The notes: generated from the letters alone by a model not told the origin. A DNA stretch of 35,457 nt from Patescibacteria group bacterium (GCA_003539915.1 DPNX01000002.1:1-35457); one strand, 5' to 3'. Shown: positions 1,512 through 20,228, counted from the first letter of the stretch. Made by a program: numbers and translations.

Positions 1512-2294
1512 ATGAGATCCGTCCGTAAATTCGGTTTGTTTTTGCTTATGGGCCTGTTTGCTTTGGTTGGATTAGTATTCTTTGGTAATTCATTAGAGAC
1601 TCAGACCCCTCAAGTACTGTCTCCAAAAAAAGTGGCTGTGAAGCCAGGCGCTTCAAACAACTTAAATGGAGAGATTGTTATTAATAATCTTCAGGCCGAG
1701 CCTATTATGGATGAGACCACTAAACGCCTAGGGGATCAGATTGCCCAACACATCAAGAGCTTGAATAACGACGGCTTGGTAAGTATTGATGATAAAAAAT
1801 ATGCTAAAGCTCTTAACCCAGAGAATATAGCTAACTCAATCATTAGTGAGGAGCTGGAAAAAATTAATAATATTGATCTTGGTTTCAATGATATTAAATT
1901 AGCAAAAATTAATATTGATTATCGAAATGATAAAAAAATACTGGCTGATTATTTCACCTCTTTCCAAAAAGTAATAAATAAGAACTTTGCTACACAGAAG
2001 ATAGATTGGGAAGAGTTTAATAAGAATAATTTTGATGAGATTATTTCTGCTTATGATAAAGCTATAGCCGAATTTTATAAATTAAAAGTTCCTGCCTTAG
2101 CTCTTAATATACACAAACAACAAATCTCTCTAATGATTCAACAAAAAATAGTCATGACTAAGTTGAAAGATGTTGATAGCAATCCTTTAGAGGCTTTAGC
2201 AGCTTTAAAATACAACCCCTCAATAGACGCAGGGTTTAAGGAGGTGACTAGTAAAGTTCTAAATCTATTAAAGATTAATCAGATAAGTATTTAA
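1512..2294 (+). CDS. Hypothetical bitopic membrane protein (N-terminal TM anchor plus ~230-aa external K/N/I-rich domain); first gene of the T4SS-like operon
   Basis: Hydrophobic segment FGLFLLMGLFALVGLVFFG lies near the N-terminus. The stop overlaps the next start (TAATG at 2294). I recognise no motif; the topology resembles VirB8-type proteins, which is a guess. Confidence 0.6.
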   Translation: MRSVRKFGLFLLMGLFALVGLVFFGNSLETQTPQVLSPKKVAVKPGASNNLNGEIVINNLQAEPIMDETTKRLGDQIAQHIKSLNNDGLVSIDDKKYAKALNPENIANSIISEELEKINNIDLGFNDIKLAKINIDYRNDKKILADYFTSFQKVINKNFATQKIDWEEFNKNNFDEIISAYDKAIAEFYKLKVPALALNIHKQQISLMIQQKIVMTKLKDVDSNPLEALAALKYNPSIDAGFKEVTSKVLNLLKINQISI

Positions 2295-3688
2295 TGAATA
2301 TTAGAAATAAAATTTTAGTTGGAATTCTTGGACTCAGTCTGATTTTGATACCTGTTCAGAGAGCTCAAGCTCTTTTTGGAGTTGGCGATATTGTTTTTGA
2401 AACTAATCCAGCTCTAATTTCTAATGCTGTAGGTGAGACTTTCCTTAGAGATGTTCTTAAGGTGGCAGTTAGTTCTCTTAAGAGAAGGTTATTATCAATG
2501 GTTACTGATCAGATAGTTAACTGGGTTGAAGGAGGGGGTAAGCCTCTATTTGTTACTGACTGGAAAGGCTTCTTATCTGATGCGGCTAATATTGCAGCAG
2601 GTGACTTTGCGTTAGAGCTAGGATTAGAAGAGCTCTGCTCTCCTTTCGGCCTCCAAGTTCAGTTAAGTATTCTTACCCCGCCAAGATTTACTGATTACGT
2701 TTCTTGCACACTAGATGATATCGTTGGTAATATTGAAAACTTTTATGAGGACTTCCGTAACGGTGGTTGGTTTGCCTACTCAGAAATGTGGCTACCTCAA
2801 AACAACTATTATGGTGCTGTCTTTATGGCTATGAATGAAAGAGATGTTCGAATTGCTGAAGAAGCTCAAGCTAGCATTCTAGAAGCTGTTTCTGGTAATG
2901 GTTTCTTGGGCACTAGGAAGTGTGATCCTTCTGGTAGGTTCTGTACTATTACCACTCCAGGAGCTCAAGTTGGTGCTTTAGTTGCAAAAGCTGTTGGCTC
3001 TGACATTGACTACTTGATTGAAGCTGACGATCTAGCTGTTTATGTGGGAGCGATAGCGGACGCCCTGATTAACAGGTTGGTCCGATCTGGTGCTGAAGGA
3101 TTAATTAGCTTAACTACTCCTGACAAACCATCTAATGGTTACTTTAGCGGCTCTGGTCCATGTTCTGGATTAAGAGGTGGTGACTTAACCAACTGCTTAT
3201 CAATAATTAAAGCTAGTGAAAAGACTTACGAGGATAATAAAAAATTATTCCTCACTCAAATTGATGCCACTCTACTACCAAGGCAAACTGGTGGAACAAT
3301 ATTAGCTTCCTTAGTAGAAGGTCAGTCTATATTAGTTCGAACGATAACTAACCTGAGAGATTGTCAGGCTGTCAAAAACTTACCAGAAACTATCTCTACA
3401 GAAACTAATCTTCAAAATGAGCAAGATTCTCTAAACCAATTAAATGGAGAGCTTTTGGCTAATAGGAGAATAACCGAGGCCTTGGAGAGTGCTAAGCTTA
3501 ATATTCAAAACCCTAGCTATCCAGACACACCAACTATCGCTTACCACTACAACAATATTGTTGGTTTATTAGATGAGGATGCAGCCCAATCATTCCAAAC
3601 CACCAAAGAAGCTAACAAAGAACAGCTGCAAAATGAAATTACTGGTAAGATATCAAATGCTCAACAGCAATTAGAAGCTTGTGAATAA
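2294..3688 (+). CDS. Hypothetical secreted protein with conserved-looking Cys residues and a Q/N-rich C-terminal coiled-coil-like region
   Basis: Signal peptide is ILVGILGLSLILIPVQRAQA followed by LFG. Nine cysteines are spaced along the mature part (ELCSPFG, YVSCTL, RKCDPSGRFCTI, GPCSGLRGGDLTNCL, RDCQAV, LEACE). The tail has a heptad-like Q/N/L/E pattern. Confidence 0.6.
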   Translation: MNIRNKILVGILGLSLILIPVQRAQALFGVGDIVFETNPALISNAVGETFLRDVLKVAVSSLKRRLLSMVTDQIVNWVEGGGKPLFVTDWKGFLSDAANIAAGDFALELGLEELCSPFGLQVQLSILTPPRFTDYVSCTLDDIVGNIENFYEDFRNGGWFAYSEMWLPQNNYYGAVFMAMNERDVRIAEEAQASILEAVSGNGFLGTRKCDPSGRFCTITTPGAQVGALVAKAVGSDIDYLIEADDLAVYVGAIADALINRLVRSGAEGLISLTTPDKPSNGYFSGSGPCSGLRGGDLTNCLSIIKASEKTYEDNKKLFLTQIDATLLPRQTGGTILASLVEGQSILVRTITNLRDCQAVKNLPETISTETNLQNEQDSLNQLNGELLANRRITEALESAKLNIQNPSYPDTPTIAYHYNNIVGLLDEDAAQSFQTTKEANKEQLQNEITGKISNAQQQLEACE

Positions 3689-3690
3689 TT

Positions 3691-5553
3691 ATGATATTTA
3701 AAAGACATAAAATATTACTATTACTTCTACTCTTGGTAATTTTAATGCCTAGCTTAGCTCAAGCAGATGTCTTTTCAGGTGCTGCTCTCAGCACAATAGC
3801 ATTTGCCGATGACATAATGGCAAAGGTGTTGTTCGCTGCTGTCTATCTTATTGGTTATTTAGCGGGAATTATCTTTATGATAGCTGGATTTTTACTTCAA
3901 GTAGGTCTGGAATTAAATGCTAATCTAATAAACAGCCCTCTAGTACAAGTTGGATGGCAGATATCTCGTGACTTTGCTAACTTATTATTAGTAGTAGCTA
4001 TAATAACTACTGCTCTCGGAACTATTATAAGGTGGAGAGGTTATACGTACAAGGAGATCTTACCTAGTATTATAGTCGTCGCTCTTCTAATCAACTTTAG
4101 CTTATCAATCGCTGGTATATTTATTGATGCCACTGGTGTAGTTAGTAATTTCTTTGTGGCAAAAGCAACTCCAAACGCTAGTCATGGGGACTTTATTCAA
4201 TTTTCCAGCTCTCTTGCACATGCCTTAGGATTACAAGAGGCTATGAAAACCGACCATCTTAAGGAGGACGAGTTTACAGAGAGTGCCACCTTTAAATTTG
4301 GCAAAGCTTCACTTCAATTATTAGCAGCACTGTTTTTTGTTGTTGCTTTCACCGTCTTAGGAGGGGGTACCATGATGATATTGGCCTTTTCAGTCGTAAT
4401 ACGTTATATAGCCCTGTCCTTGTTGTTAATAATGCTGCCCCTAGCCTTAATTTCTAGTACAATTCCTAAATTTAAAAAGAATTGGGAGGAGTGGCAAGGG
4501 AAGTTTATCGAGTATCTAACTTTTCTGCCAGTTTCATTATTCTTTATTTACTTAACTATTATCTTCTTGACCAATTTCAAAGATGATCCTAATGGCATCT
4601 TTAGTACTATCACCAGTAGTCAGAGTAGTGTTGCTGATTTTATTGCTAACATTGCCGAAACAGCAGCTCGACTATCTATTGTTATTGGCTTGTTGCTAGG
4701 TAATCTGATTATTTCAAAAAAAATAAGTAGTAGTGCAAAAGATATGGTGGCTAACGGTTCATTTGCTCTTTATAACAAGTTTAGGCGTGGTAGCAGGAAG
4801 GTTGGCATGCTACCTTTTCGTGGTGCTAGGGCTGGTGCTAGAGGTATTGGTAAGAGAATACCCGCTACAGATATAAGGGGTAAGGCTGTCGGAGCTATTT
4901 CTAGACTCACCTCTAGAATACCTGTTATTGGAGGAGTTCTCAGCAGCTATAGAGCTAATAGATCAGCTCAAAATGAAGAATTGCGTGCAGAGCAAGTTAA
5001 TGATTATCAAAAGAGTAAATTAAAGAATCTTTCTAATAATGAATTATTTGGCTATTCAGAGCTTGGCTCTGTTGCTAAGGCAGCTAAGTTAAACGAGCTA
5101 TCTAAGAGAGGTAAGTTGGATGAATATCTTAGTAAGAGTAAAGACTCAGAAGCTGCCCTCAAGCCATTTATTGATGCAGCTAAGAAGATGGGTACTCAGA
5201 AGGATCTACTTAAAACTCGCCCTGACCTAGCTGGTAGCTTTGCTGAAGTAGGTGATGATGTAGCTGAGGCAATTGAGAAAGCGGTTGGTAAGATCTCTCC
5301 TAAAGACTCTTTGGAAATAGCGACTTCTGCGCTGAAGAAGGTTGAAGTGGCTATGTCTTTAAAGATGAATCAATTAAAAGAAATTGCTCGAAGTGCTACA
5401 CCTGAGAAGAAGCAAGTTCTTCAAAATGCTGTAAGAATTCATTTAGATCCTCTCATACTAAAAGATACTTCAGCAATGAGTGGTGTAGAAAAACAAATAT
5501 TTGAAAAGCTCAGTAAAATTGATGCGTTTATGGAAGGTCCAGCTTGGAGTTAA
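3691..5553 (+). CDS. VirB6/TrbL-like polytopic membrane protein with a ~250-aa basic/Ala-Lys-rich C-terminal tail
   Basis: A signal-like N-terminus (LLLLLLLVILMPSLAQA) is followed by at least 6 long hydrophobic segments up to about residue 345, then a soluble tail (RRGSRKVGMLPFRGARAGARGIGKR...). Size, topology and position next to PrgI/VirB4 genes fit VirB6-type channel subunits. Confidence 0.6.
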   Translation: MIFKRHKILLLLLLLVILMPSLAQADVFSGAALSTIAFADDIMAKVLFAAVYLIGYLAGIIFMIAGFLLQVGLELNANLINSPLVQVGWQISRDFANLLLVVAIITTALGTIIRWRGYTYKEILPSIIVVALLINFSLSIAGIFIDATGVVSNFFVAKATPNASHGDFIQFSSSLAHALGLQEAMKTDHLKEDEFTESATFKFGKASLQLLAALFFVVAFTVLGGGTMMILAFSVVIRYIALSLLLIMLPLALISSTIPKFKKNWEEWQGKFIEYLTFLPVSLFFIYLTIIFLTNFKDDPNGIFSTITSSQSSVADFIANIAETAARLSIVIGLLLGNLIISKKISSSAKDMVANGSFALYNKFRRGSRKVGMLPFRGARAGARGIGKRIPATDIRGKAVGAISRLTSRIPVIGGVLSSYRANRSAQNEELRAEQVNDYQKSKLKNLSNNELFGYSELGSVAKAAKLNELSKRGKLDEYLSKSKDSEAALKPFIDAAKKMGTQKDLLKTRPDLAGSFAEVGDDVAEAIEKAVGKISPKDSLEIATSALKKVEVAMSLKMNQLKEIARSATPEKKQVLQNAVRIHLDPLILKDTSAMSGVEKQIFEKLSKIDAFMEGPAWS

Positions 5554-5571
5554 TATTAAAATTAATAAACC

Positions 5572-6360
5572 ATGGTCACAATAACATTACAAAACGCTTT
5601 CGCCTCATTATCCGATAAAACCAGGGACTGGCTTACTTCCGAAGAGATAGTGAATAAGATAACCTCTCTTAATGATGGGTTAGGATTAAAATCTGATCGA
5701 CGTCGAATAATATCTAAATTAATTCTTCGAGTAGCTGTCCAGGATTTAGATCCTCGAGACTTTGCTAATGAGCTAGGATCTCAATTAAAAATCAATTATG
5801 AGGCAGCAAAAGAAATAACTCAAAAAGTTCATGCTGATTGCTTGCAACCAATCGAAGCAGAATTAAAGAAAATTAATGTTGATGTTCATGAGATGATTGA
5901 ATACTCTACAGCTCCACCTGAACAACTATCAGCCTATCCTGACAAGCCAGCGCCGGTAATGGAATATTCTAAGCCTGCTAAGCTAGGTTCCAAACCTCTT
6001 AAAGTTGAGGCTACTAGTAAGCTGTCAACCACAGCTCCTGATAACCTGCCTTTAGCAAAACAAAAAATGAAACCAGTTTCCCCTGCCCAACCTTTTGTAT
6101 TACACAAAGAAACGGGTGATATTAAACCAGTAGAAGAGGGGGGTAAGACTTCTTTCAAATACAAAGAGTCTGTTAGAGAAAGAGCTGTTAAGGAACCTCC
6201 CGTTAAAGTTAAAATAGAAAGTCCTCAGAGTGGTAATAACTTAGAGTTTCAGAGAATAGTACATTATAGTAACTTCTTTACCCCTTTTAACACTCCTCAA
6301 ACACCCCCAACCAAGGGAGAGGTTAAAGTTAAAGTACCAGATTCTAAATGGTTTAGTTAA
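5572..6360 (+). CDS. Hypothetical soluble protein: ~110-aa helical N-domain plus Pro/Lys-rich low-complexity tail
   Basis: The ORF has no TM segment or signal peptide. The tail PDKPAPVMEYSKPAKLGSKPLKV...PPVKVKIESP looks disordered. It is co-oriented and 18 nt from the upstream gene. Confidence 0.55.
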   Translation: MVTITLQNAFASLSDKTRDWLTSEEIVNKITSLNDGLGLKSDRRRIISKLILRVAVQDLDPRDFANELGSQLKINYEAAKEITQKVHADCLQPIEAELKKINVDVHEMIEYSTAPPEQLSAYPDKPAPVMEYSKPAKLGSKPLKVEATSKLSTTAPDNLPLAKQKMKPVSPAQPFVLHKETGDIKPVEEGGKTSFKYKESVRERAVKEPPVKVKIESPQSGNNLEFQRIVHYSNFFTPFNTPQTPPTKGEVKVKVPDSKWFS

Positions 6361-6361
6361 T

Positions 6362-6832
6362 ATGCATTTTCAAGTTCCTCAATTTATTGATGTAGAAGAT
6401 AAAATAGTTGGTCCTTTAACTATTAAGCAGTTTTTGTATGTTGCGGCTGGATTCTTAACTATTTTCTTTAGCTTCTTTATTTTTCACTTTTATTTTTGGT
6501 TAATATCTACTGTCTTTATTGTAGTAATAAGTGGTGCTTTCGCTTTTATTAAGTATAATGGCAGATCGTTCTTAGTCCTTATAACATCAGTAATCAATTA
6601 TTACTGGCGTCCTCGTATCTACATCTGGAAAAAAAGGGGTGGTAAACAGGTTAAAAAGAGAGGATTATCAAATCTAAAGTTAAAATTAGATACCTCAAGG
6701 AAGCCTATTAAAGGAGAGAAGTCTTTTATGCTTCCTTTCTTGCAAAGAATAAAGAAGATGAAGGATGAGTATGAGGTTTTTAGAAAATCTACGGGTGAAA
6801 GAGAGGTGGCTCGTAGAGTTGATTATAGATAA
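6362..6832 (+). CDS. PrgI-family (VirB3-like) small membrane protein
   Basis: The N-terminus FQVPQFIDVEDKIVGPLTIKQFLY is followed by two TM helices. This is the characteristic opening of PrgI-family proteins of Gram-positive-type T4SS, and the gene lies directly upstream of VirB4. Confidence 0.7.
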   Translation: MHFQVPQFIDVEDKIVGPLTIKQFLYVAAGFLTIFFSFFIFHFYFWLISTVFIVVISGAFAFIKYNGRSFLVLITSVINYYWRPRIYIWKKRGGKQVKKRGLSNLKLKLDTSRKPIKGEKSFMLPFLQRIKKMKDEYEVFRKSTGEREVARRVDYR

Positions 6833-6834
6833 GT

Positions 6835-6840
6835 TATAAT
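6835..6840 (+). promoter_or_regulatory. Internal -10 box TATAAT, 6 nt before the ATG at 6847
   Basis: An exact TATAAT sits in the 14-nt PrgI/VirB4 spacer. It has the same TATAAT-N6-ATG geometry as at 1512 and 33321. Confidence 0.4.
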
Positions 6841-6846
6841 AAAGCG

Positions 6847-7518
6847 ATGCCAAAACAAAAATCCCTAGCAACACAAGAAATTATTGATATTGATCGCATT
6901 GAAGATGATGTGATTGTTTTGAAAGGTGGTAGTTTTAGAAAAATATTATTAGTTTCAGGAATTAACTTTGATCTTAAATCTGAAGAAGAGAAGAACTTGA
7001 TCATCTTCAGTTACCAGGAGTTTTTAAACTCTCTAAGCTTTTCTATTCAAGAGATAATTCATTCTCGAAAGATTAATATTGAGGGTTATTTGAGTCATTT
7101 AAAAAATCTCCATCAAAAAGAACCTACTAGCTTGTTAAAAAATTTAATTACTGACTATAAAGATTTTGTTAAAGAGTTTGTAGAAAGAAATCCTATTATG
7201 TCTAAGACTTTTTTTATTGTAGTGCCTTATGACCCTATTAATATTCCTAAGATAGGTAAAAGAGTAACTAGAGGTTTGTTTGGATTATTTAAAAAGAAGA
7301 AAGGAGTGGTTGAAGAAAAAACTGAAGATGGTCAGTTTTTAGAAAATAAGCGGCAGCTGGATTTGAGAGTGGATCAAGTAACAGCAGGACTAAATAGGGT
7401 TGGCTTGAGAGCTGTTCCTTTATCAGAAGATGAGGCTATTGAATTATTTTATAATTTTTATAATCCAGCATTAGTAGAAAAGAAAGGTGTTATTAAAAGA
7501 GATAAAAATGAAGAATGA
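6847..7518 (+). CDS. VirB4/TraE-type ATPase, N-terminal domain encoded as a separate ORF
   Basis: TQEIIDIDRIEDDVIVLKGGSFRKILLVSGINFDLKSEEEKNLIIFSYQEFLNSL matches the conserved opening of Gram-positive-type VirB4 proteins (recalled pattern, not a search). The ORF ends at TGA 7516-7518, inside the next ORF. Confidence 0.7.
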   Translation: MPKQKSLATQEIIDIDRIEDDVIVLKGGSFRKILLVSGINFDLKSEEEKNLIIFSYQEFLNSLSFSIQEIIHSRKINIEGYLSHLKNLHQKEPTSLLKNLITDYKDFVKEFVERNPIMSKTFFIVVPYDPINIPKIGKRVTRGLFGLFKKKKGVVEEKTEDGQFLENKRQLDLRVDQVTAGLNRVGLRAVPLSEDEAIELFYNFYNPALVEKKGVIKRDKNEE

Positions 7519-9205
7519 AATTAAAAACATAATAGCGCCAGCTGCTCTAGAGGTTAGCCCTAGCTATTTAAAGTTGGGTGATAAGTATACTAAAACTATA
7601 TTTATCACATCCTATCCTCGTTACTTAGCCACCGGCTGGTTCTCATCAATCATTAATGCTCCTGAATTAATGGATGTATCTATTTTTGTTCATCCGGTAG
7701 ATACCGCAATTGCTTTGAAAAGTTTAAGGCGGAAAACTGCTCAAATAGAATCGCAGATAATAGAAAAAAGTGAGAAGGGGGTTGTTCGAAGTCCTAAATT
7801 AGAAACCGCTCTTCAAGACATTGAGTCTTTAAGAGATTCCTTGCAACAAGCGACTGAGCATCTATTTAATGTTTCTGTTTATATAACTATTTATGCTGAT
7901 AGTGTTAATGAATTAAAAAGATTAGAGGGTAAGATCAATCACTTATTAGAAAGTCGTCTAGTTTATAGCAAGCCAGCCACCTTTCAACAGATAGAGGCCT
8001 TTAACACCACCCTGCCAATAGGAAAAGACTCTTTAATGATCACGTCTCCTTTCAACTCTTCACCAGCCTCTTCGTTTTTTCCTTTTGTTTCTGCCACATT
8101 AACTTCTGATAGCGGTGTACTACAGGGTATTAATCTTAGTAACAATACTTTGGTTATTTTCGACCGCTTTTCTCTAGAAAATGCTAACCAGGTCATCTTT
8201 GCCACCTCTGGTTCTGGTAAATCATATGCTGCTAAATTAGAAGCTTTGAGATTATTAATGACTGGAACCGATGTCCTGATTATCGATCCAGAAAATGAGT
8301 ATAAGAATCTAGCAAAAGCAGTTGGAGGGAGTTTCTTTAATATCTCTCTAGCATCAAAAGATCATATTAACCCTTTTGATTTACCAATTATTCCTAAGGA
8401 TAGTGATCCAACAGATACTCTAAAATCACATATAGTTAACTTAGCTGGTTTATTAAAAATAATGCTAGGGGAGATGACTCCTGAGGAAGAGGCTCTCTTG
8501 GATAGGGCTATATCAGAAACCTATGCCTCTAGAGACATAGCTCCAGGAAAAGACTTTTCTAAAGCTCAACCACCATTATTATCCGACTTAGAAACTGTTC
8601 TTAATAGCTTGACTGGTGGTCAGTCATTAGCCCAACGCCTATATAGATATACCCAAGGTAGTTATGCTGGCTTTATCAACCAACCAACCAACATTAATAT
8701 ACGGAATAGATTGGTTGTCTTCTCTATTAGAGATCTTGAGGAGGAGTTGAGACCTATAGCGATGTATATGATCGTTAACTTCATCTGGAGCCTAATTAAA
8801 AGTGAGTTGAAGCAACGAGTGATGATAGTTGATGAGGCTTGGTGGATGATGAAATACCCTGCTGGCGCCTCTTTTATGTTTGGATTGGTTAAGAGAGCTA
8901 GAAAATACTATTTAGGTGTCACTACTATAACTCAAGACGTTGAAGACTTCTTACAATCTCCTTATGGAAGACCGATAATTACAAACTCTGCTTTACAGAT
9001 ATTATTAAAACAGCAACCGGCAATGATTGATTTGCTTGCTAAGACGTTTAACCTGACAGAAAGTGAGAAGAATTTCTTACTAGACGCACCTGTGGGTGAG
9101 GGGCTGTTTTTTGCAGGCTTAAATCATGTCATTATTAAGATAGTAGCTTCTTATCTTGAGGATCAGATCATAACAACAAATCCAAAAGACTTATTAAATG
9201 AGTAA
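7508..9205 (+). CDS. virB4: VirB4/TraE-type conjugal-transfer-like ATPase, central and C-terminal ATPase part
   Basis: Walker A is ATSGSGKSY (8207-8224) and Walker B is VMIVDEAWWMM (8819-8836), with IAPAALEVSPSYLKLGDKYTKTIFITSYPRY upstream. I prefer the ATG at 7508 over the tracked GTG at 7487. Confidence 0.85.
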   Translation: MKNEIKNIIAPAALEVSPSYLKLGDKYTKTIFITSYPRYLATGWFSSIINAPELMDVSIFVHPVDTAIALKSLRRKTAQIESQIIEKSEKGVVRSPKLETALQDIESLRDSLQQATEHLFNVSVYITIYADSVNELKRLEGKINHLLESRLVYSKPATFQQIEAFNTTLPIGKDSLMITSPFNSSPASSFFPFVSATLTSDSGVLQGINLSNNTLVIFDRFSLENANQVIFATSGSGKSYAAKLEALRLLMTGTDVLIIDPENEYKNLAKAVGGSFFNISLASKDHINPFDLPIIPKDSDPTDTLKSHIVNLAGLLKIMLGEMTPEEEALLDRAISETYASRDIAPGKDFSKAQPPLLSDLETVLNSLTGGQSLAQRLYRYTQGSYAGFINQPTNINIRNRLVVFSIRDLEEELRPIAMYMIVNFIWSLIKSELKQRVMIVDEAWWMMKYPAGASFMFGLVKRARKYYLGVTTITQDVEDFLQSPYGRPIITNSALQILLKQQPAMIDLLAKTFNLTESEKNFLLDAPVGEGLFFAGLNHVIIKIVASYLEDQIITTNPKDLLNE

Positions 9206-9614: not shown

Positions 9615-10273
9615 ATCGTATAATTTTAATAATTTTTATCTGTCTACTATCCTTACCAGCTCTAGCTCACGGGCAAGAGTTCTTATTCAATTGGGAGGGT
9701 GATAGTTTTGTGCCTGGTTTTTATCAAGGAAGAAGAATGCCTACTGATAATTCATCCTTAAAAATGAGTTTTGAATTAATAGAAAATGATCGCTTGTTGA
9801 ATATTAAAGGTAAAAAGGTGGAGTGGTATGTAGATGGAAAATTATCCCAAAAAGGTGTTGGTTTACAAAGAATAACTGCTAATCAATTTAATGTAAGTCG
9901 TAGTGATATATTTGTTAGAGTTTTAATAAAAAATTTTAAAGGAGGTAATCTAGAAAAAAGCTTTATCATCCCTAAAACAATCCCAAAAGTTATTATTGAA
10001 AGAAATTTTATTAATAATACAATATCAGCTGGAATAAGTATTATTAAGGCATGGCCTTTATTTTTTAATATAGACGATCTATCGGATTTAAATTTCAATT
10101 GGTTTTCCAATAATATTAAACATTCTGGTGAGGATGTTGAAAGGCCTAATGTTTTAGAGCTAGATATACCAACTGACAATGGTCAATTCTCTGTTAATTT
10201 AAATATAAATGTTGTTAATAATAAAAATATAAGTGAGTCAGCTATTAAAAAAATAAATCTAACAATAAAATGA
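9611..10273 (+). CDS. Hypothetical secreted beta-rich protein
   Basis: Signal peptide is IILIIFICLLSLPALAHG. FNWEGDS near the N-terminus and FNWFSNN near residue 160 hint weakly at two related modules. ATGA overlaps link it to the genes on both sides. Confidence 0.55.
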   Translation: MNRIILIIFICLLSLPALAHGQEFLFNWEGDSFVPGFYQGRRMPTDNSSLKMSFELIENDRLLNIKGKKVEWYVDGKLSQKGVGLQRITANQFNVSRSDIFVRVLIKNFKGGNLEKSFIIPKTIPKVIIERNFINNTISAGISIIKAWPLFFNIDDLSDLNFNWFSNNIKHSGEDVERPNVLELDIPTDNGQFSVNLNINVVNNKNISESAIKKINLTIK

Positions 10274-11619
10274 AGAAGGTTTTTATTATTATAATATTAT
10301 TAGTTCTATCAACTCCTATCGCTTTTGGTCAAGGAGCTATGGAGTCAGCACTTGCTCTTGATGAAGTTGAGGAGAGGGTTGGGACAAGAAATGACTTAAT
10401 GACAAGTATAGACCGAACAACGGATACAAATAGAATGAGTCATTTAAGTGGGTCTAAACTAACTACAAGAATTAGAAGAGATGCTCAAGAAATGAAGAAG
10501 GCTCTTTATGATCCATATGTTGATGTTGATGAGGTCAAAACTTATCAAATACTAAGAGGTACGTCTAGTAATTATAGAACAAGGTTAGCTGAAGAATATC
10601 TACGGATAACGGGTAACAGGTTTCAAAGTGATTTACTTCGCCTAGGAAATGATAATGGTCATGATGTTTTAAGAGGTAAGTTATTATTTAAACAAGGAAC
10701 CCTCTACCCTGAGGATAGGATTGTTTTAGGTTCTGATGGGAGAGGTACTAATGAAAGGTTATTTTTTGATGAGGTGATGAGCATGAGTCTTTACCCAGAA
10801 GATAAAGCTAGGCTCAATGATAGGTGGGCTGAAAAGTATGGCTCTTCGGGTATTTTTAAGGCTAGAGCTAATGGTGGTGAGAGTAGCGTTTTAACTTATT
10901 TTTACAGCGAAGAGTCTGATGAGTCATATAGATCCACCCTTCAAGCCTTATGGGAGGGAAAGGGTGGTTTTCAAGATAATCATGCTGCTCTAACAGCATC
11001 TTGGCTAGGTATTAATCCTGCTGAGCTCGATAGAGCAGCTGCTAGGACTTATGCGGAAAGAGTTGTTGATGAGCAAATGAACAGGGGGGAGACTAGAAAC
11101 GATGCTGTAATGAGAATCTACAATGAAAAACTAGCCTTTATTAGGACTGGGATGGGTAGTCTTCAGGTTACAGGCTCTGGAGAGTTAGAATGTGGACCCG
11201 ATGGTCTTGGTTATAAACTTTGTGTTCCTATATTGGGAAAGGAGAAGGTGGAAAATATTGGTGGTTATATAGTTTTAATTTATCAGTTTGCTCTAGCTAT
11301 ATCTGGGATCCTTGCCTTTATAATGATTACTTATGGTGGTATTAGATGGACTGTTTCAGGAGGTAATGTTAGTAAAATAAGTGAAGCAAAAGAAATTATT
11401 ACAAACGCTATTTTTGGACTTATTCTTTTAGCTATAGCTACTAGCATTCTATATATCATAGATCCCTCTATATTAAGTATACGAGTTGATAAATCCACCT
11501 TTACCGTAAGAGCGCCTAACTACAAGGCGCCTGTAAAACCTATACCAATTCCAGATCCAGATAGACTGCCTTCCGCGCCTTTAATTATAATTGACCCCGG
11601 TGAATCAAATAACGAATAA
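10270..11619 (+). CDS. Secreted ~300-aa helical-repeat domain fused to a C-terminal VirB2/TrbC-type pilin hairpin
   Basis: Signal peptide is IIIILLVLSTPIAFG. The C-terminus has TM1 IVLIYQFALAISGILAFIMITYGGI, the loop RWTVSGGNVSKISEAKEIITN and TM2 AIFGLILLAIATSILYII, which is the T4SS pilin pattern common in CPR genomes. The N-domain carries DAQEMKKAL...IL..TS and GRGTNE motifs. Confidence 0.65.
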   Translation: MKKVFIIIILLVLSTPIAFGQGAMESALALDEVEERVGTRNDLMTSIDRTTDTNRMSHLSGSKLTTRIRRDAQEMKKALYDPYVDVDEVKTYQILRGTSSNYRTRLAEEYLRITGNRFQSDLLRLGNDNGHDVLRGKLLFKQGTLYPEDRIVLGSDGRGTNERLFFDEVMSMSLYPEDKARLNDRWAEKYGSSGIFKARANGGESSVLTYFYSEESDESYRSTLQALWEGKGGFQDNHAALTASWLGINPAELDRAAARTYAERVVDEQMNRGETRNDAVMRIYNEKLAFIRTGMGSLQVTGSGELECGPDGLGYKLCVPILGKEKVENIGGYIVLIYQFALAISGILAFIMITYGGIRWTVSGGNVSKISEAKEIITNAIFGLILLAIATSILYIIDPSILSIRVDKSTFTVRAPNYKAPVKPIPIPDPDRLPSAPLIIIDPGESNNE

Positions 11620-12764
11620 TGAAAAAAATAATTATTACAATTTCAATCATCTTAATCGTTATTATTAGTGGTTTTATAATCTATTCATTCTTAAGCCCAA
11701 GTGACACCTTGGACTTTGAAATAATAGATTTAGTTACTGATAATTCTGAAAGCACTGATTCAGAACTAGTTTTTGAAAATAAAATAAATATTGTATCACC
11801 AGAAGAAATTTTAGGTTATTCAATTAATCCAGTCACTAAGCATGTTTACGTTGTTAATACGCTAGGTGAAATTAAAAAGATTAATAACTCGAACTCTGAA
11901 AAAGTTTCTAGTCAAAAAATTAAGGGGATTAATAAGGTTCAGTCCTCAAAAGATGGTAGGAAAATAATGATTGGATTTAACTATCCCAACCAACCAGTTT
12001 TTTCTATTTATAATATTACTGATAGCAACTGGACACCTCTTCCTAAAAATACTATCAGCGCTGATTGGCACCCAGAAAATTCTAATGAAATTATTTATTT
12101 AACTAATGATAATTTAAAGATATTAGATCTTAAAAAAAATAGGTCTAGGTCTGTTTTAAACATTAAATTAACAGGCTCTAAATTAGACTGGGTGTCGTTA
12201 AGTGAGGTGATTGTAATGGAGAGACCTACTACTAAATACAGCTCTGATGCGTGGTTGATTAATTTGAGCACTAAAAAAATTAAAAAAATAGCCTCGGGTA
12301 AAGGTTTAATGATTAATCAGAAAGACGGTTGGAGACTAAGCTTTGTTTATAATAGTAAGGGTAATGAGGTGTTTAATTTAATTAATTCAGAAACTAATAA
12401 GGTTGTTGGTTATTTTAACTTCAGAACCCTACCTTCTAAATGTGTTATTGATCAAAATAATTTTTATTGTGCTATCCCGAATCAAATACCATTGAACACA
12501 TCTCTACCTAATGATTATTTGAGTAGAAAATTTATATCTGATGATATTATCCAATCTATAATGATTAGTAGTGATTCGCAATCAATAGAGTCTAAAATAT
12601 TATACAAAGAAGGGGATGATTTGGTTGATGCTACTGACCTTAAAATAGTTAATGATCAGTTATATTTTATTAATCGATCTGATAATAAACTCTATAGCCT
12701 AAAGTTAGATAAGGTGATAGAGGGGGTTGTTAAGGAGGGGGTTACTGAAGAAGCTTCACAATAA
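11619..12764 (+). CDS. Hypothetical membrane-anchored protein, possibly beta-propeller (TolB-like blades); last gene of the operon
   Basis: N-terminal anchor is IIITISIILIVIISGFIIYSF. Blade-like segments recur, for example ISADWHPENSNEIIYLTNDNLKILDL. The fold call is a guess. Confidence 0.5.
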   Translation: MKKIIITISIILIVIISGFIIYSFLSPSDTLDFEIIDLVTDNSESTDSELVFENKINIVSPEEILGYSINPVTKHVYVVNTLGEIKKINNSNSEKVSSQKIKGINKVQSSKDGRKIMIGFNYPNQPVFSIYNITDSNWTPLPKNTISADWHPENSNEIIYLTNDNLKILDLKKNRSRSVLNIKLTGSKLDWVSLSEVIVMERPTTKYSSDAWLINLSTKKIKKIASGKGLMINQKDGWRLSFVYNSKGNEVFNLINSETNKVVGYFNFRTLPSKCVIDQNNFYCAIPNQIPLNTSLPNDYLSRKFISDDIIQSIMISSDSQSIESKILYKEGDDLVDATDLKIVNDQLYFINRSDNKLYSLKLDKVIEGVVKEGVTEEASQ

Positions 12765-13173
12765 CACAACGACCAACTCCTTCTCCAGCGCTCTCAGTCT
12801 CCACGTCTGGACGAGTAGCTAGTTCTAAATGAATGATCCTTCTTTCGTAAGAATTCATAGCTGGTAATTTAACATCTTCCTTAGTCATAACCACTTTTCT
12901 TGCGGCAGCTTTAGCAATATCTATAATAATATTCTCTCGTTCTTTGCGATAATTATTAACATCAACAAAAACTGAGTCGTGATCATTCTTATTAGCTAAA
13001 ACTTTAGATAGGTGATTGAGATCACTAATTACTCTAGGAATCCAATTCTTAAACCAATCTCCTTCGTTAATAAAGATAATTATTTTTCTTCCTTCATTAT
13101 CTGAATTAATAGAAAAATCTTTAAACCCCACTAATTCCAGGATCCGTTGTATTGTTGCTTTGGTCTTCTCCAT
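12742..13173 (-). CDS. jag: Jag/KhpB-type RNA-binding protein (KH plus R3H domains)
   Basis: The R3H-like motif NSYERRIIHLEL is present, and the gene sits downstream of yidC in the classical rpmH-rnpA-yidC-jag order. Confidence 0.8.
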   Translation of the reverse strand: MEKTKATIQRILELVGFKDFSINSDNEGRKIIIFINEGDWFKNWIPRVISDLNHLSKVLANKNDHDSVFVDVNNYRKERENIIIDIAKAAARKVVMTKEDVKLPAMNSYERRIIHLELATRPDVETESAGEGVGRCVIVKLLQ

Positions 13174-13849
13174 AAATCTTTTTATTAATATATAACTGCT
13201 GAGCTAAAGAAAATAAGGTTGTTGTTAACCAATAAACTCCAACAGCAGAAGGCATGTTAAACAATATAACAACTGCTAGTATTGGACCAATCCAAATCAT
13301 CTTTCTACTAATTTTAACCGCTTGTGGTTCTGGCTCTCCTTTCTTAATTTTAGGAAGAGTTAGGCGACCATGCACATACTGAAAGACGGCAGCTAAAACA
13401 ACAATAAGAATACTCTTATTTGATAGATCAATCAAGCCTAAGAAAGTACTGTTAACTACCTCTGGTTGAGAAACAAAGGGGTAGAGATTTTTTAACGTCT
13501 CAGATGTAACACCTAAATAAAAGACTCTATAAACCGCAATCAACACAGGTAGTTGTACAAGAATTAATAAGAAGCCTGAAAAAGGATTAACTTTATGTTG
13601 TTTATATAACTCCAACATTCTTCGCGCTTGTTCTTCGCGATCATCTTTGTGATCATGTTGTATTTTTTGTATCTCTGGTTGAAGTTTTTGTAAGAGGGTT
13701 TGATTTTTAAAACTCTTATAAAAAAGGGGGGCGAGAATAGTTCTAATAATTATAGTTAATAAAATTATAGATACACCAAAGTCTCCAATATTGTTATATA
13801 AAAAAATAAGGGTGTTAAATATAGGTTGTGTGAGAAAGGTGTTAAACAT
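13121..13849 (-). CDS. yidC: Membrane protein insertase YidC (short Gram-positive/Oxa1 type)
   Basis: The sequence contains ILLTIIIRTILAPLFYKSFKNQ...KLQPEIQKIQ...YKQHKVNPFSGFLLILVQLPVLIA. Synteny with rnpA supports the call. Confidence 0.9.
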   Translation of the reverse strand: MFNTFLTQPIFNTLIFLYNNIGDFGVSIILLTIIIRTILAPLFYKSFKNQTLLQKLQPEIQKIQHDHKDDREEQARRMLELYKQHKVNPFSGFLLILVQLPVLIAVYRVFYLGVTSETLKNLYPFVSQPEVVNSTFLGLIDLSNKSILIVVLAAVFQYVHGRLTLPKIKKGEPEPQAVKISRKMIWIGPILAVVILFNMPSAVGVYWLTTTLFSLAQQLYINKKIYGEDQSNNTTDPGISGV

Positions 13850-14151
13850 TATTTAAATAATTTATTAATTTCTTCGATTAGTTGTTCTTTAGAATTATTC
13901 TTACTAATCACAACTAAATAATCAAATGGTTTTAGTTGAGGTAATAATAATCTTACCTGATTAAATACCAATCTCTTCAATTCATTTCTTTTCACTGCTG
14001 ATTTAACCACTTTTTTACTAACCATCACTCCTAACCGAGGGACATCTTTATCGTTAGTATATTTTTTTAGAGTTAAAGATTGAGAGCGTCTAACTTCTGA
14101 TTTTTTACTCTTTAAATATTGAATAGGAAGCCTGTTTTTCTTGGCTAACAT
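13849..14151 (-). CDS. rnpA: Ribonuclease P protein component
   Basis: A 100-aa basic protein starting immediately after the rpmH stop, with the RNR-like KRNELKRL motif. Position is canonical. Confidence 0.85.
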   Translation of the reverse strand: MLAKKNRLPIQYLKSKKSEVRRSQSLTLKKYTNDKDVPRLGVMVSKKVVKSAVKRNELKRLVFNQVRLLLPQLKPFDYLVVISKNNSKEQLIEEINKLFK

Positions 14152-14286
14152 TTAAACAGTAATGTTTTTTCTACCCTTTTGACGACGGCTTTTTAACACT
14201 CGTCGACCACCCGGGGAGGCGCTTCTTTTTAAGAATCCGTGGACTCTTTTTCTCTTTCTTTTTTTAGGTTGATATGTTGTTGACAT
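14152..14286 (-). CDS. rpmH: 50S ribosomal protein L34 (44 aa; below the ORF-track size cutoff)
   Basis: Hand translation of the minus strand gives [44 protein letters not shown]. This is the L34 signature, and the gene abuts rnpA. Confidence 0.95.
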
Positions 14287-14313
14287 AATAATTATTTATA
14301 GCAGAAAATATAG

Positions 14314-14333
14314 TTTTCCACAACTCATCCACA
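14314..14333 (+). promoter_or_regulatory. Two DnaA-box-like 9-mers in the rpmH-dnaA spacer
   Basis: TTTTCCACA (14314-14322) and TCATCCACA (14325-14333) each have one mismatch to TTATCCACA. Confidence 0.6.
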
Positions 14334-14366
14334 TGTTATTAATTTAGGTCTTATTTCATTGAAATT

Positions 14367-14394
14367 TTGACGAGATGCGAAGAGTGATTAAAAT
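14367..14394 (+). promoter_or_regulatory. dnaA promoter: TTGACG-16 nt-TAAAAT, with the -10 ending 6 nt before the ATG
   Basis: The -35 is at 14367-14372 and the -10 at 14389-14394, with the ATG at 14401. There is no Shine-Dalgarno in between. Confidence 0.55.
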
Positions 14395-14400
14395 GATGAT

Positions 14401-15762
14401 ATGGATCTAAATCAGTTTTGGGAAAAAGCCTTAGGAGATATTGAGCTTCAAGTTTCAAAACCTAACTTTGTTACTTGGTTTAAGAATAGTAGGGTAATTG
14501 ATAAACAAGACGGTTTAGTGGTTATTGGTCTACCAAATAACTTTGCTAAAGAATGGGTGGAAAAGAAATACGACAAAGTCATCTTAGGTTCTTTAAGATC
14601 GTTAGATGAGAAGGTTAAAAAGGTGGAGTTTATCATCCACTCCCAAAACAAGCCTCTTGTGCCAAGTAATCTTTCTGAAAAAGCTGTTGCTGATAACGAA
14701 ACTCAATTAAGTTTTACTGAATTTAAGATTGACCCCGAAACAAACCTTAATCCCCAGTACACTCTTCAGTCATACGCTGTTGGATCAACAAACGAATTAG
14801 CTTATGCCGCGATAACTGCCATCCTCGCTTCGATAGGTAACAAATACAACCCTCTCTTTATCTACGGGGGAGTGGGTGTTGGTAAAACTCATTTAATACA
14901 GGCGGCTGGCAATGAAATAAAAAGGAAGTCTAAGGGAAATGTTAAGGTTAGGTATGTTTCCTCAGAAAAATTCACTAATGATGTTATTTGGGCGATGAGA
15001 AACAAACGAATGGATACTATGAAGTCTAAGTATCGAAATGTAGATGTTTTAATTATTGATGATATTCAATTCATTGGCGGTAAAGAAAAGACTGAGGAAG
15101 AGTTCTTTCACACCTTCAATGCTTTGTTCGAACAAAATAAACAGATCATCCTATCCTCTGATAGGTCTCCTAAGTTCATTCCCGTCCTTGAGGAGCGCTT
15201 GAGCTCACGTTTTGAGGGTGGAATGACGGTTGATATATCATCACCTGATTTCGAGCTTAAGGTGGCTGTTTTACGCAATAAGTTAGAAGAAAAGGGTATT
15301 GAGTTAAGTAATGAGGTTATAAACGCTATCGCTAGTAAAACTCAAAAGAATTTAAGAGAGTTAGAAGGTATATTAAATAAGGTTTTATTTTATAAAGAGG
15401 TTAAAAAAGAAGAGGTTAGTGCTAAAACCCTTGATCAAATAATCGATAATATAGTTCAAAAACCAGCTAAAACAACTAGTCCTGATCAAATAATGAAGAT
15501 AGTCTCTAATTTTTTTGAGATATCTATTAACGATATAATCAGCCGCTCTAGAAAAAAGGAGATTGTTGAGCCTAGACAGGTGTCTATCTACCTCTTGAGA
15601 GATATATTAGGCTTATCTTACCCTTATATTGCTGATAAATTAGGAAAAAGAGATCATACTACTGCTATTTATGCTTATAATAAAATAAAGAAGGAGATCT
15701 TAAAAAATCAGATGTTAAACCAAAAAATAATCATGATTAGAGATATTATAGATAAGGGATAA
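14401..15762 (+). CDS. dnaA: Chromosomal replication initiator DnaA
   Basis: AAA+ Walker A is GGVGVGKTHL and Walker B is LIIDDIQF. The C-terminal DNA-binding helix is DHTTAIYAY. Confidence 0.97.
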   Translation: MDLNQFWEKALGDIELQVSKPNFVTWFKNSRVIDKQDGLVVIGLPNNFAKEWVEKKYDKVILGSLRSLDEKVKKVEFIIHSQNKPLVPSNLSEKAVADNETQLSFTEFKIDPETNLNPQYTLQSYAVGSTNELAYAAITAILASIGNKYNPLFIYGGVGVGKTHLIQAAGNEIKRKSKGNVKVRYVSSEKFTNDVIWAMRNKRMDTMKSKYRNVDVLIIDDIQFIGGKEKTEEEFFHTFNALFEQNKQIILSSDRSPKFIPVLEERLSSRFEGGMTVDISSPDFELKVAVLRNKLEEKGIELSNEVINAIASKTQKNLRELEGILNKVLFYKEVKKEEVSAKTLDQIIDNIVQKPAKTTSPDQIMKIVSNFFEISINDIISRSRKKEIVEPRQVSIYLLRDILGLSYPYIADKLGKRDHTTAIYAYNKIKKEILKNQMLNQKIIMIRDIIDKG

Positions 15763-16026
15763 CTTATGGATAAGCTGAGGATTACTGGTGAGTGAGTTCT
15801 GGATAAAAAGTTAGTAAAAACAACTCTACTCAACAAGGTTAAAAGATATCCTATACTTATTACTCTTCTATCCGAGTTTAATCCACAGGAAGTAAACAGG
15901 TTGTTGCGCAGAAAAAAATATTTTTAATTCGATTATAAAAGGGTTATAATATGTTATTCACAAAAAAGGTCCTACACTACTAACTACTACTACTATTAAT
16001 AATTAATATATAAATATATTAGTAAT
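15763..16026 (+). other. Candidate oriC (dnaA-dnaN spacer): DnaA boxes, CTA/TAG trinucleotide run, AT-rich unwinding element
   Basis: One-mismatch boxes are TATGGATAA (15765-15773, reverse orientation), TCTGGATAA (15798-15806, reverse), TAATCCACA (15879-15887) and TTATTCACA (15954-15962). Seven CTA triplets lie at 15972-15995. The stretch 15996-16026 contains only one G/C base. Confidence 0.7.
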
Positions 16027-17133
16027 ATGAAGGTTGTTATCTTAAAAAGTAATTTAAAAGGTGGATTGTCGTCAGTCGAGAGAGCTATAGGAGAGAGTTC
16101 TAATTTACCAGTTCTTAGAAACGTCTTATTAAAGACTAATGGTAATAAGATTAATATTTCAACAACTAATTTAGAACTAGCTATCACTAAAACTGTTTCA
16201 GGAAAGATTATCGAAGAAGGAGGTTTAACGATTCCTTTCAGTACTTTAAATAATATTGTTAACAATACTACTCAAGAGAGAGTTAGTTTAGAAAAGGATG
16301 GAAATAATTTTATTTTCAAGACAGATAATTACGAAGCTAAAATACAAGGACTTAAAGAAGATGAATTTCCAGTTATTCCTAAGATTAAAAGTGAAAACTG
16401 TATAGAGTTCAATCCGGTTATATTAAGAAAAGCTGTTAATAAAGTTATTAGTGCTGCTCAGATGTCAGAAATAAGACCAGAGATTAGTGGGTTATTACTT
16501 GATTACCAAGTAACTCAAATAAAATTAGTAGCAACGGATAGTTTTAGGCTCGCAGAAAAGAATATTAGCGCCAATCAATTCAAGTCTGATATAAACCACA
16601 GCTTTAAGGTAATCGTTCCGCTAAAGACCGTTCAGGAGGTCTTAAGGGTATTTAGCGATGATGAACCAATCAAACTTTTTATAGACGACAATCAAATTCT
16701 TTTTAAGAACAATAATTTACAGATCATTTCTAGATTGATTGATGGTGAGTATCCGGATTATGAACAGATTATCCCTAAAAGTATCGAAACTGAATTAAGT
16801 GTTAATAAGGAGCATTTTATAAACGCTGTTCGCTTAGTTAGTACTTTTAGTGGAAAAAATAATGATGTTAATCTAGCGCTTAAAAACAATAAGGTGATGG
16901 AAGTTTATTTAGCTAATCAGATGTTGGGAGAAAATAATTACATGATCCCCACCAAAACTGACGGAAAAGATTTTGAAAATGTTTCTTTTAACTGGCGTTA
17001 TCTAATTGATGGCTTGAAAGTTATAGATTCTGAAAATCTAATCTTTGGAGTTAATGGTAATAATCGTCCAGCGGTAATTAAGTCAGCTGATGACACTTCT
17101 CATTTTTATATCTTAATGCCAATCAAGGCTTAG
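16027..17133 (+). CDS. dnaN: DNA polymerase III beta sliding clamp
   Basis: The protein is 368 aa and contains ATDSFRLA and LIDGEYPDYEQIIP motifs. It follows dnaA. Confidence 0.95.
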   Translation: MKVVILKSNLKGGLSSVERAIGESSNLPVLRNVLLKTNGNKINISTTNLELAITKTVSGKIIEEGGLTIPFSTLNNIVNNTTQERVSLEKDGNNFIFKTDNYEAKIQGLKEDEFPVIPKIKSENCIEFNPVILRKAVNKVISAAQMSEIRPEISGLLLDYQVTQIKLVATDSFRLAEKNISANQFKSDINHSFKVIVPLKTVQEVLRVFSDDEPIKLFIDDNQILFKNNNLQIISRLIDGEYPDYEQIIPKSIETELSVNKEHFINAVRLVSTFSGKNNDVNLALKNNKVMEVYLANQMLGENNYMIPTKTDGKDFENVSFNWRYLIDGLKVIDSENLIFGVNGNNRPAVIKSADDTSHFYILMPIKA

Positions 17134-19751: not shown

Positions 19752-20228
19752 CTAACTTATATTACGTGTCAAGTTAGCGGCTGTGATTGAAATTGCTATA
19801 GCATCAGTGACATCGTCAATTAATTTTACAGGAGGTATTTGAAGTATAGAAAAGACCATCCTAGCCACAGCCTTTTTATCAGACAAACCATAACCTGTGA
19901 CGGATAATTTAACCTCTTGAGGGTTATGCTCTGTAAGGATTATATTCTGTTTTAGAGAGAGGTATATTAAAACGCCACGAGCTTGAGCAACCTCTATGGC
20001 GGTCTTCACATTTCTAGAAAAAAATATTTTTTCTATAGCTACTAGATCGGGTTTAAGTTCTTTTAATACTTTTTTGTAATCGTGAGCAAGAAAGGTTAGT
20101 TTGTGATTTATGTCTTTTTCTTTTACCTCAATCAACCCGTAGTCAATCAAGGTTAACTTAGAACCATTTTTTTCAATAAGACCATAACCACAACGAGATG
20201 ATCCAGGATCAACACCGAGAATTCTCAT
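19752..20228 (-). CDS. ruvC: Crossover junction endodeoxyribonuclease RuvC
   Basis: The N-terminus is MRILGVDPGSSRCGYGLI and the protein is 158 aa. The yebC-ruvC gene order is conserved. Confidence 0.92.
   Translation of the reverse strand: MRILGVDPGSSRCGYGLIEKNGSKLTLIDYGLIEVKEKDINHKLTFLAHDYKKVLKELKPDLVAIEKIFFSRNVKTAIEVAQARGVLIYLSLKQNIILTEHNPQEVKLSVTGYGLSDKKAVARMVFSILQIPPVKLIDDVTDAIAISITAANLTRNIS

Follow-up and report, generated by a model that had tools for sequence, protein, structure and literature searches.

The 35,457-nucleotide stretch of Patescibacterium chromosomal DNA analysed here (GCA_003539915.1 DPNX01000002.1:1-35457; hereafter the window) was found to encode, within a type IV secretion system (T4SS) operon, a protein in which a pilin-type hairpin of the PF18895 (T4SS_pilin) family is preceded by two annexin-homology repeats and an unassigned helical module, the N-terminal part not constituting a canonical Ca2+-binding annexin core. 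The open reading frame (ORF) occupies 10270..11619 of the plus strand, starts with ATG and specifies a product of 449 amino acids (aa), with exactly the coordinates given in the original prediction, which had described an outsized T4SS pilin carrying a VirB2-type hairpin behind a secreted domain with annexin-like motifs. The parts follow one another as signal peptide, variable linker, two-repeat annexin-like module, third helical module, Cys-Cys loop, hairpin and Pro-rich tail. A Kyte-Doolittle scan of the whole protein revealed three hydrophobic segments and no more (residues 1-25, 330-359 and 373-404), in agreement with the topology that had been proposed for checking, namely a leader and two hydrophobic hairpin segments. 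The strings quoted in the prediction were all located, with DAQEMKKAL beginning at D71, GRGTNE at 157-162, the hairpin strings IVLIYQFALAISGILAFIMITYGG and AIFGLILLAIATSILYII at 330-397 (nucleotides 11257-11470), and KAPVKPIPIPDPDRLPSAP in the tail.

The annexin resemblance, initially a pattern match made by eye, was borne out by profile searches, by an exhaustive database search and by structural comparison. As a single sequence, the protein ranked annexin A4/A5 first in the PDB when searched with phmmer (E = 6e-4). A profile of eight orthologues matched PDB annexins with E = 6.9e-9, and a 14-sequence profile, comprising these orthologues and six distant relatives, matched annexins A4, A5 and A2 with E = 7.1e-12, the E-values improving as relatives were added. 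Only annexins were present among the best 60 PDB matches listed for the 14-sequence profile, which aligned residues ~68-194 in register with repeats 1 and 2 of annexin IV, including the GaGTDE of repeat 2. These alignments, together with the helices of the model described below, placed annexin-like repeat 1, with five helices, at residues 62-144 (10453..10701) and repeat 2 at residues 145-216 (10702..10917), the latter carrying G157-R-G-T160-N-E162 in its AB loop. Both segments that had been singled out as annexin-type were thereby supported as repeats, with the GxGT motif confined to the second of them. Judged from sequence, the homology of the N-domain to annexins is statistically secure.

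An exhaustive hmmsearch with a profile of the N-domain alone was conducted against 1.84 billion representative proteins and returned 60 matches, 25 of which were inspected. Two of these (P0005 and P0008) belonged to the query family and a further six (P0010, P0011, P0012, P0015, P0020 and P0044) were additional annexin-pilin fusions of 375-470 aa, each with a leader, an annexin-like module, a CGP...C loop and a PF18895 hairpin. The Pfam Annexin threshold was passed by 15 of the 25, with E-values down to 1e-94, and several of the proteins that passed it also carried eCIS_core or Aspzincin_M35 domains. Sub-threshold Annexin matches only were obtained for P0011, one of the fusions, and for the short protein P0016. 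The latter is 190 aa in length and has a membrane anchor at its N-terminus. Its only annexin-like repeat (DAQKLKEALYDPWFFIDEDTVFNIL...DLNRLG) closely resembles repeat 1 of the fusions, and the protein may be either part of the annexin-like module or a relative that stands alone. When the wide-family alignment was used in a word-indexed search of proteins, P0044 was the single addition, and the distant fusions were recovered only by the exhaustive search. The annexin-pilin family is rare, with about nine clusters among the 1.84 billion representatives.

An AlphaFold2 model of the N-domain (predicted local distance difference test score, pLDDT, 81.7; predicted template modelling score, pTM, 0.74) displayed a helix pattern of 5 + 5 + 4, in which the ten helices predicted over residues 62-216 correspond to the five-helix, ~70-residue annexin repeat. 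The structural search proposed with the original prediction also favoured annexins, in that the best 50 Foldseek matches of the N-domain model in the PDB were all annexins with a probability of 1.0, as were those of the full-length model. Alignment of repeat 1 with repeat 2 by hhalign fell in the expected register. Across the wide family, Y102, R103, Y110, T114 and L125 of repeat 1 were invariant, as were W186 and G194 of repeat 2, where T160 of the GRGT(157-160)NE motif was nearly so.

The third helical module (residues 217-297; 10918..11160) was confidently modelled as four helices, two of them long, and was the fastest-evolving folded part of the protein, with 20-23% identity to P0007/P0008. 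A profile of this module retrieved no annexin or other significant match from the PDB, the best being a DUF2059 protein at E = 0.13. Its candidacy as a third annexin repeat was dropped, as neither the PDB profile search nor hhalign gave an annexin signal. It is followed by a linker (residues 298-329; 11161..11256) that contains the disulphide-type Cys308...Cys318 loop and the motif of the pilin N-terminus (CGPDGLGYKLCVPILG). In this linker, C308, G309, P310, G314, Y315, L317, C318 and G323 were invariant across 11 fusion proteins.

The hairpin itself (residues 330-403; 11257..11478) matched PF18895 with 34.3 bits and E = 2.4e-8 against a Pfam cut-off of 26.6 bits, residues 334-397 covering profile positions 9-71 of 71, and the same assignment was precomputed for this protein in a sequence database. 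Helix 1 spans residues ~330-356 and is joined through the polar loop IRWTVSGGNVSKISEAKE to helix 2 (~376-397), which ends in ILYIIDPSIL. The hairpin aligned well with 17 other Patescibacterial hairpins, and the family ending ILYxI(D/N)P was present. As in other PF18895 proteins, a leader precedes two hydrophobic helices connected via a short polar loop, and the gene is located within a T4SS cluster, two genes downstream of that encoding VirB4, in an order that is kept in relatives. The leader is a Sec-type signal peptide (residues 1-21; 10270..10332; MKKVFIIIILLVLSTPIAFG, with QG following), coinciding with the hydrophobic segment at 1-25, and we infer that it is cut after AFG. A leader of the same kind was found on small PF18895 pilins.

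In these small pilins, Y-T-L-L-x-P-L-P-G comes only a few residues after the leader, and ~20 residues separate it from the hairpin. The sequence Y-K-L-C-V-P-I-L-G at residues 315-323 of the query aligned by eye with this YT(L/V)LxPLPG motif; since the two are equivalent, the ~285 extra residues appear to be inserted between the leader and the N-terminus of the mature pilin. The 120 best database matches to a profile of the hairpin were 96-156 aa in length, hence the description of this 449-aa protein as outsized was a fair one. Typical members of the family measure about 100-150 aa and consist, once mature, of little other than the hairpin, which is not the case here.

Large proteins with this hairpin are not unique to the query. 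A scan of GTDB genomes identified it in ORFs of 219-607 aa in other Patescibacteria, where it was joined to Peptidase_M15_3 (L014, 2395-3348), to an N-terminal GDSL lipase together with a C-terminal SLT lytic transglycosylase (L009, 5967-7790), and to C-terminal domains in further loci (L010-L013, L015, L017 and L019-L021). The carriage of large cargo on a PF18895 hairpin is therefore a recurring theme, and such hairpins may serve generally to carry domains that attack the host envelope. An unassigned C-terminal domain of ~170 aa with 'TGGTEGGHxxHG...D...HWH' motifs recurred on these hairpin fusions and resembles, by eye, a LAS-type zinc peptidase. The contig carrying L009 (CAZRUM010000001.1) is labelled as an 'uncultured Gammaproteobacteria bacterium', and may be a Patescibacterial contig that was mis-binned or mislabelled, or else reflect a transfer.

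The individual parts have evolved at different rates. Amongst orthologues, identities were 76-100% for the signal peptide, 24-52% for the variable linker, 28-80% for the annexin repeats, 20-84% for the third module, 53-91% for the Cys-loop linker and 78-99% for the hairpin. With identities of 20-84% in the N-domain as a whole versus 78-99% in the hairpin, the anticipated contrast between a variable N-domain and a conserved hairpin was confirmed, and the quicker evolution of the annexin part fits a putative host-facing specificity module. The variable linker (residues 22-61; 10333..10452) was modelled with a pLDDT of 28-40 and is missing from the distant fusion relatives. The C-terminal tail (residues 404-449 and the stop codon; 11479..11619), in which the Pro-rich stretch is located, was modelled with low confidence; it is kept in close orthologues and is shorter or missing in others.

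This architecture was shared by the eight close orthologues and six distant relatives from independent assemblies, which excludes a mis-assembly or a fused-ORF artefact. An identical protein is recorded by NCBI as a 'hypothetical protein' of 'Patescibacteria group bacterium' and is also present in TARA data, and marine sources (TARA and marine metagenomes) were found for the protein and its relatives. The ATG of the ORF overlaps the stop codon of the preceding gene (ATGA) and its TAA stop overlaps the ATG of the following gene (TAATG); since start and stop codons overlap both neighbours, the gene is translationally coupled to both and sits in a tightly coupled operon.

On this evidence, we propose with a probability of roughly 0.55 that the annexin-pilin is an envelope protein of a monoderm-type (MPF-FATA-like) Patescibacterial T4SS which presents the annexin module to the host, every functional step of this role being one that we infer. 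Following topology logic, Sec export and cleavage of the leader would put the annexin module outside the cell. Helix 1 would act as a stop-transfer segment, the 18-residue polar loop would be cytoplasmic in the membrane form, and helix 2 would return the Pro-rich tail to the outside. In VirB2 and TraA pilins, both termini are found on the outside of the assembled pilus. The hairpin would then either stay in the membrane as a T4SS anchor or be pulled out of it by the VirB4 machine and built into a pilus-like fibre or fibre tip, and either way the annexin module would be displayed to the host cell. The module would most likely bind envelope phospholipid or another anionic surface, and so would serve as a host-contact or adhesion element of the T4SS. 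Seawater contains about 10 mM Ca2+, in which any Ca2+-dependent site would be kept loaded.

A number of observations weigh against this proposal. The Pfam Annexin model (PF00191) did not match the query protein at E<=1, and the matches obtained for three of the eight orthologues (best E = 1e-3) were judged to lie under the 25-bit cut-off. Two recognisable repeats are present in place of the four of an annexin core, and comparisons by hhalign between residues 62-144, 145-216 and 217-297 detected no significant internal repeats (E 0.16-0.37). Foldseek TM-scores to annexins were 0.34-0.43, with root-mean-square deviations of ~12 angstroms, and the overall fold, as modelled, differs from the canonical four-repeat annexin disc. 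A type II Ca2+ site comprises GxGT in the AB loop and an acidic residue about 38 positions downstream. Repeat 1 has DPYVDVDE instead of GxGT and the invariant Leu125 at the position of the acidic cap, and in repeat 2 the cap region (N201, E204) is not conserved. For the hairpin, the full-length model predicted two long helices at a pLDDT below 50. A profile of it matched no solved VirB2, TraA or TrbC chain in the PDB at E<=10, the best match being a PsbZ chain only (E = 0.69), and Pfam detected no PF04956 (VirB2/TrbC/TraA) match in the protein at E<=1. The label of a VirB2-type hairpin thus depends on the above-threshold PF18895 match and the T4SS context. Given the other fusions, the hairpin could equally well be a generic membrane anchor or a pilin. 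Filament formation is unproven for every PF18895 protein, and reviews treat the pilus as an attractive possibility (PMC12857230), its attraction being that pilin genes are essential in Southlakia epibionticum (PMC12857230, PMC10633639). Nor has a function been demonstrated for any bacterial annexin (PMC3894181).

It is possible, although on balance doubtful, that the PF18895 hairpin is only a general two-helix anchor or T4SS-docking module which holds extracellular cargo, here the annexin-like module, at the cell surface and does not polymerize, any pilus being built from small pilins encoded elsewhere. The proteins of 219-607 aa in which the hairpin is fused to Peptidase_M15_3, to GDSL and SLT domains or to another C-terminal domain are in keeping with this, as is the size of the N-terminal cargo, which would disfavour dense packing in a filament. 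The outer surface available to each subunit of the F-pilus is roughly 650-700 square angstroms, so that a homopolymer bearing a 27-kDa domain on every subunit would need to be a wide 'bottle-brush'; because this rough packing estimate disfavours a tight homopolymer, a purely anchoring hairpin stays a live alternative, and the estimate counts against the fibre form of our own proposal. A search of all six-frame ORFs with the hairpin hidden Markov model identified no second hairpin in the 35-kb window, a result that covers the window, and small pilins could lie elsewhere in the genome. The hairpin gene is, however, the sole one of its kind in the T4SS operon, both here and in syntenic relatives, pilin genes occupy the same spot in other Patescibacteria (PMC12102498), and the hairpin is conserved in the manner of a structural subunit (78-99%). 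At the other extreme, the T4SS of a monoderm epibiont could build a fibre of which the annexin-pilin is the structural or the tip subunit. The outward-facing annexin modules would bind host phospholipid in Ca2+-rich seawater so that the filament docks on the host envelope, perhaps with lipid extraction or fusion, and PF18895 would serve as a modular platform delivering annexins, peptidoglycan hydrolases and lipases to the interface with the host. We consider this version unlikely; if true, it would offer a physical route for the lipid or metabolite scavenging that Patescibacteria need.

Canonical T4SS pilins (VirB2, TraA and TrbC) mature from unusually long leaders. A comparable event here, in which cleavage near CGP...LCVPILG frees a soluble annexin-like factor and leaves a mature pilin of ~120-140 aa, would suit the match between Y-K-L-C-V-P-I-L-G and the mature N-terminal Y-T-L-L-x-P-L-P-G position of small PF18895 pilins. 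We regard such processing as quite unlikely, since the three hydrophobic segments include no second signal-peptidase-like h-region and no recognisable protease site precedes the motif, the operon has no protease gene recognisable by Pfam or NCBIfam, and the Cys pair, being invariant, looks more like part of a stable structural loop than like a place of cleavage. It is highly improbable that a generic helical domain matched annexins by chance or through its composition, or that two genes were joined artefactually. The sub-threshold Pfam scores (best E among family members 1e-3), TM-scores below 0.5 and the insignificant internal repeat would be expected on that account, yet the profile E-value fell from 6e-4 through 6.9e-9 to 7.1e-12 as relatives joined, and the inspected matches from outside the family all hit Pfam Annexin, above threshold with the exception of P0016. 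The alignment register also fits the annexin helices and GxGTDE, the best 50 structural matches were all annexins, and the ORF was fused in the same way in TARA, ENA, JGI, Logan and GTDB assemblies, which are independent of one another, as well as in relatives that are 29-31% identical. This explanation was accordingly rejected, being refuted as far as computation allows by the profiles, the exhaustive search, Foldseek and recurrence.

The poorly understood Patescibacterial T4SS is without a relaxase and coupling protein (PMC12102498, PMC12857230, PMC10633639), and the T4SS and pilin genes were essential for epibiotic growth of S. epibionticum, the one organism tested (PMC10633639, PMC12857230). 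A pilin-family protein with an outward annexin-homology domain of ~280 residues would point to direct contact of the T4SS with a lipid surface, and provides a testable idea of how the T4SS of this very small marine bacterium, which depends on a host, might touch the host cell. A soluble domain of ~240 residues could be expressed and assayed for Ca2+ and phospholipid binding without culturing the organism. With this protein, the few bacterial annexins listed so far are joined by one whose architecture is extracellular and linked to a secretion system. Taken with the hydrolase fusions, it also suggests that PF18895 hairpins act as modular carriers and not only as minimal pilins.

The surrounding T4SS genes are all encoded on the plus strand, and a terminator-like hairpin at 1452-1476 lies ahead of the cluster. 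The upstream genes (1512..6360) are tightly packed, in an order kept in relatives, and encode two secreted or anchored proteins (1512-2294 and 2294-3688), a VirB6/CD3337-like polytopic membrane protein with a weak NCBIfam CD3337/EF1877 match (3691-5553) and a 262-aa protein (5572-6360). The core genes (6362..9205), conserved in L001-L004, encode a PrgI/VirB3-like protein (6362-6832), a TrsD/VirB4 N-domain protein (6847-7518) and the VirB4 ATPase (7487-9205), with matches to PrgI, P-loop_TraG and AAA_10 in Pfam and to TrsD and VirB4 in NCBIfam. VirB4 is thus represented by two overlapping ORFs, a 223-aa TrsD/TraC-like N-domain protein and a 572-aa P-loop ATPase. The split is genuine and no frameshift error, as every syntenic relative (L001-L004) has it too, and TrsD and VirB4 have been reported to be arranged in the same way in systems of the monoderm type.

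Between VirB4 and the annexin-pilin lie two coupled genes without a family match, for a 138-aa polytopic membrane protein (9198-9614) and a 220-aa secreted protein (9611-10273). The coupled gene immediately downstream (11619..12764), which is also present in L001-L004, likewise has no family match; its 381-aa product carries a membrane anchor at its N-terminus and has a conserved pair of Cys residues. Synteny was identical around orthologues at 80% and 43% identity, and the distant fusion P0044 (29% identity, L005) was flanked upstream by an orthologue of the 220-aa protein (37% identical) and downstream by one of the 381-aa protein (35% identical). The 220-aa gene, the annexin-pilin and the 381-aa gene are a conserved three-gene module, the fusion and its two flanking genes being conserved to about 30% identity. 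The 220-aa and 381-aa proteins retrieved no PDB match as single sequences or as 4-sequence profiles, and Pfam returned only a sub-threshold Kelch_4 match for them. NCBIfam searches of the annexin-pilin and its neighbours yielded only TrsD/VirB4 and the weak CD3337/EF1877 match. A scan for sigma-70 promoters was uninformative (48 sites versus 48 expected).

The operon abuts jag(R3H)-yidC-rnpA on the minus strand, followed by dnaA-dnaN on the plus strand (12742..17133), and lies beside oriC. A near-oriC placement of T4SS genes has been proposed to possibly raise their expression (PMC12102498), and genes for PF18895 'VirB2-like' pilins are widespread in Patescibacteria, usually near virB4 and near dnaA (PMC12102498). 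Elsewhere in the window, DNA polymerase I was found to be split between a 5'-3' exonuclease gene (24440..25312; 290 aa) and a family-A polymerase gene (25312..26601; 429 aa), with no recognisable 3'-5' exonuclease domain. A YebC/TACO1-family gene at 20228..20740 (minus strand) encodes only 170 aa, with a match limited to the N-terminal domain and to positions 1-55 of the model for the second and third domains; this short form appears real, because it was also found in L001 and L004.

Amongst the known systems closest to the annexin-pilin are the small PF18895 pilins, for example those of the essential pilin array of S. epibionticum ML1 (PMC10633639, PMC12102498), with which it shares the hairpin family, the signal peptide, the Y-x-L-x-P-L/I-x-G motif before the hairpin, the ILYxI(D/N)P ending and the site by virB4 near dnaA. 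It differs from these 96-156-aa proteins in its length of 449 aa, with about 285 extra residues, and in being encoded by a single gene, whereas the S. epibionticum genes form an array. Resemblance to the VirB2/TrbC/TraA pilins (PF04956; F and T pili) extends to a leader, two hydrophobic helices with a short polar or basic loop between them, termini that are both predicted to lie outside, and a gene beside VirB3 and VirB4 homologues. Sequence similarity to these pilins is, however, undetectable (no PF04956 match at E<=1 and no solved pilin at E<=10), and the host is a monoderm, whose MPF-FATA-like machine is normally without pilins (PMC12102498).

With the annexins (PF00191; A4, A5 and A2, e.g. 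1aow, 1ann and 2zhi), which bind membranes in eukaryotes, the query shares two consecutive, homologous five-helix repeats of ~70 residues and the GxGT(D/N)E in the AB loop of repeat 2, and annexins were its sole structural neighbours among the best 50. Annexins have four repeats, whereas the query has two plus a non-annexin helical module (TM-scores 0.34-0.43), lacks a Ca2+ loop in repeat 1 and a conserved acidic cap, and falls below the Pfam threshold; they are also cytosolic and soluble, whereas the query is predicted to be extracellular and membrane-tethered. The bacterial annexins (PMC3894181), some of which were among the matches of our exhaustive search, similarly have divergent annexin domains in one to five copies, joined to DUF4157/eCIS_core, metalloprotease, lipase or toxin domains and sometimes to transmembrane regions, but none of those described is from Patescibacteria, joined to a pilin or located in a T4SS operon. 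We found no published description of an annexin-pilin joining or of annexins in Patescibacteria, and the word 'annexin' is absent from the main paper on the Patescibacterial T4SS (PMC12102498); the architecture is hence new, although its parts, PF18895 pilins and bacterial annexins, were already known. The PF18895-hydrolase fusions are alike in that the hairpin carries a large extracellular domain. Their cargo is mostly C-terminal and enzymatic, whereas the annexin-pilin has its cargo on the N-terminal side, after the leader and ahead of the pilin motif, in the form of an annexin module that is of a binding and not of a catalytic type.

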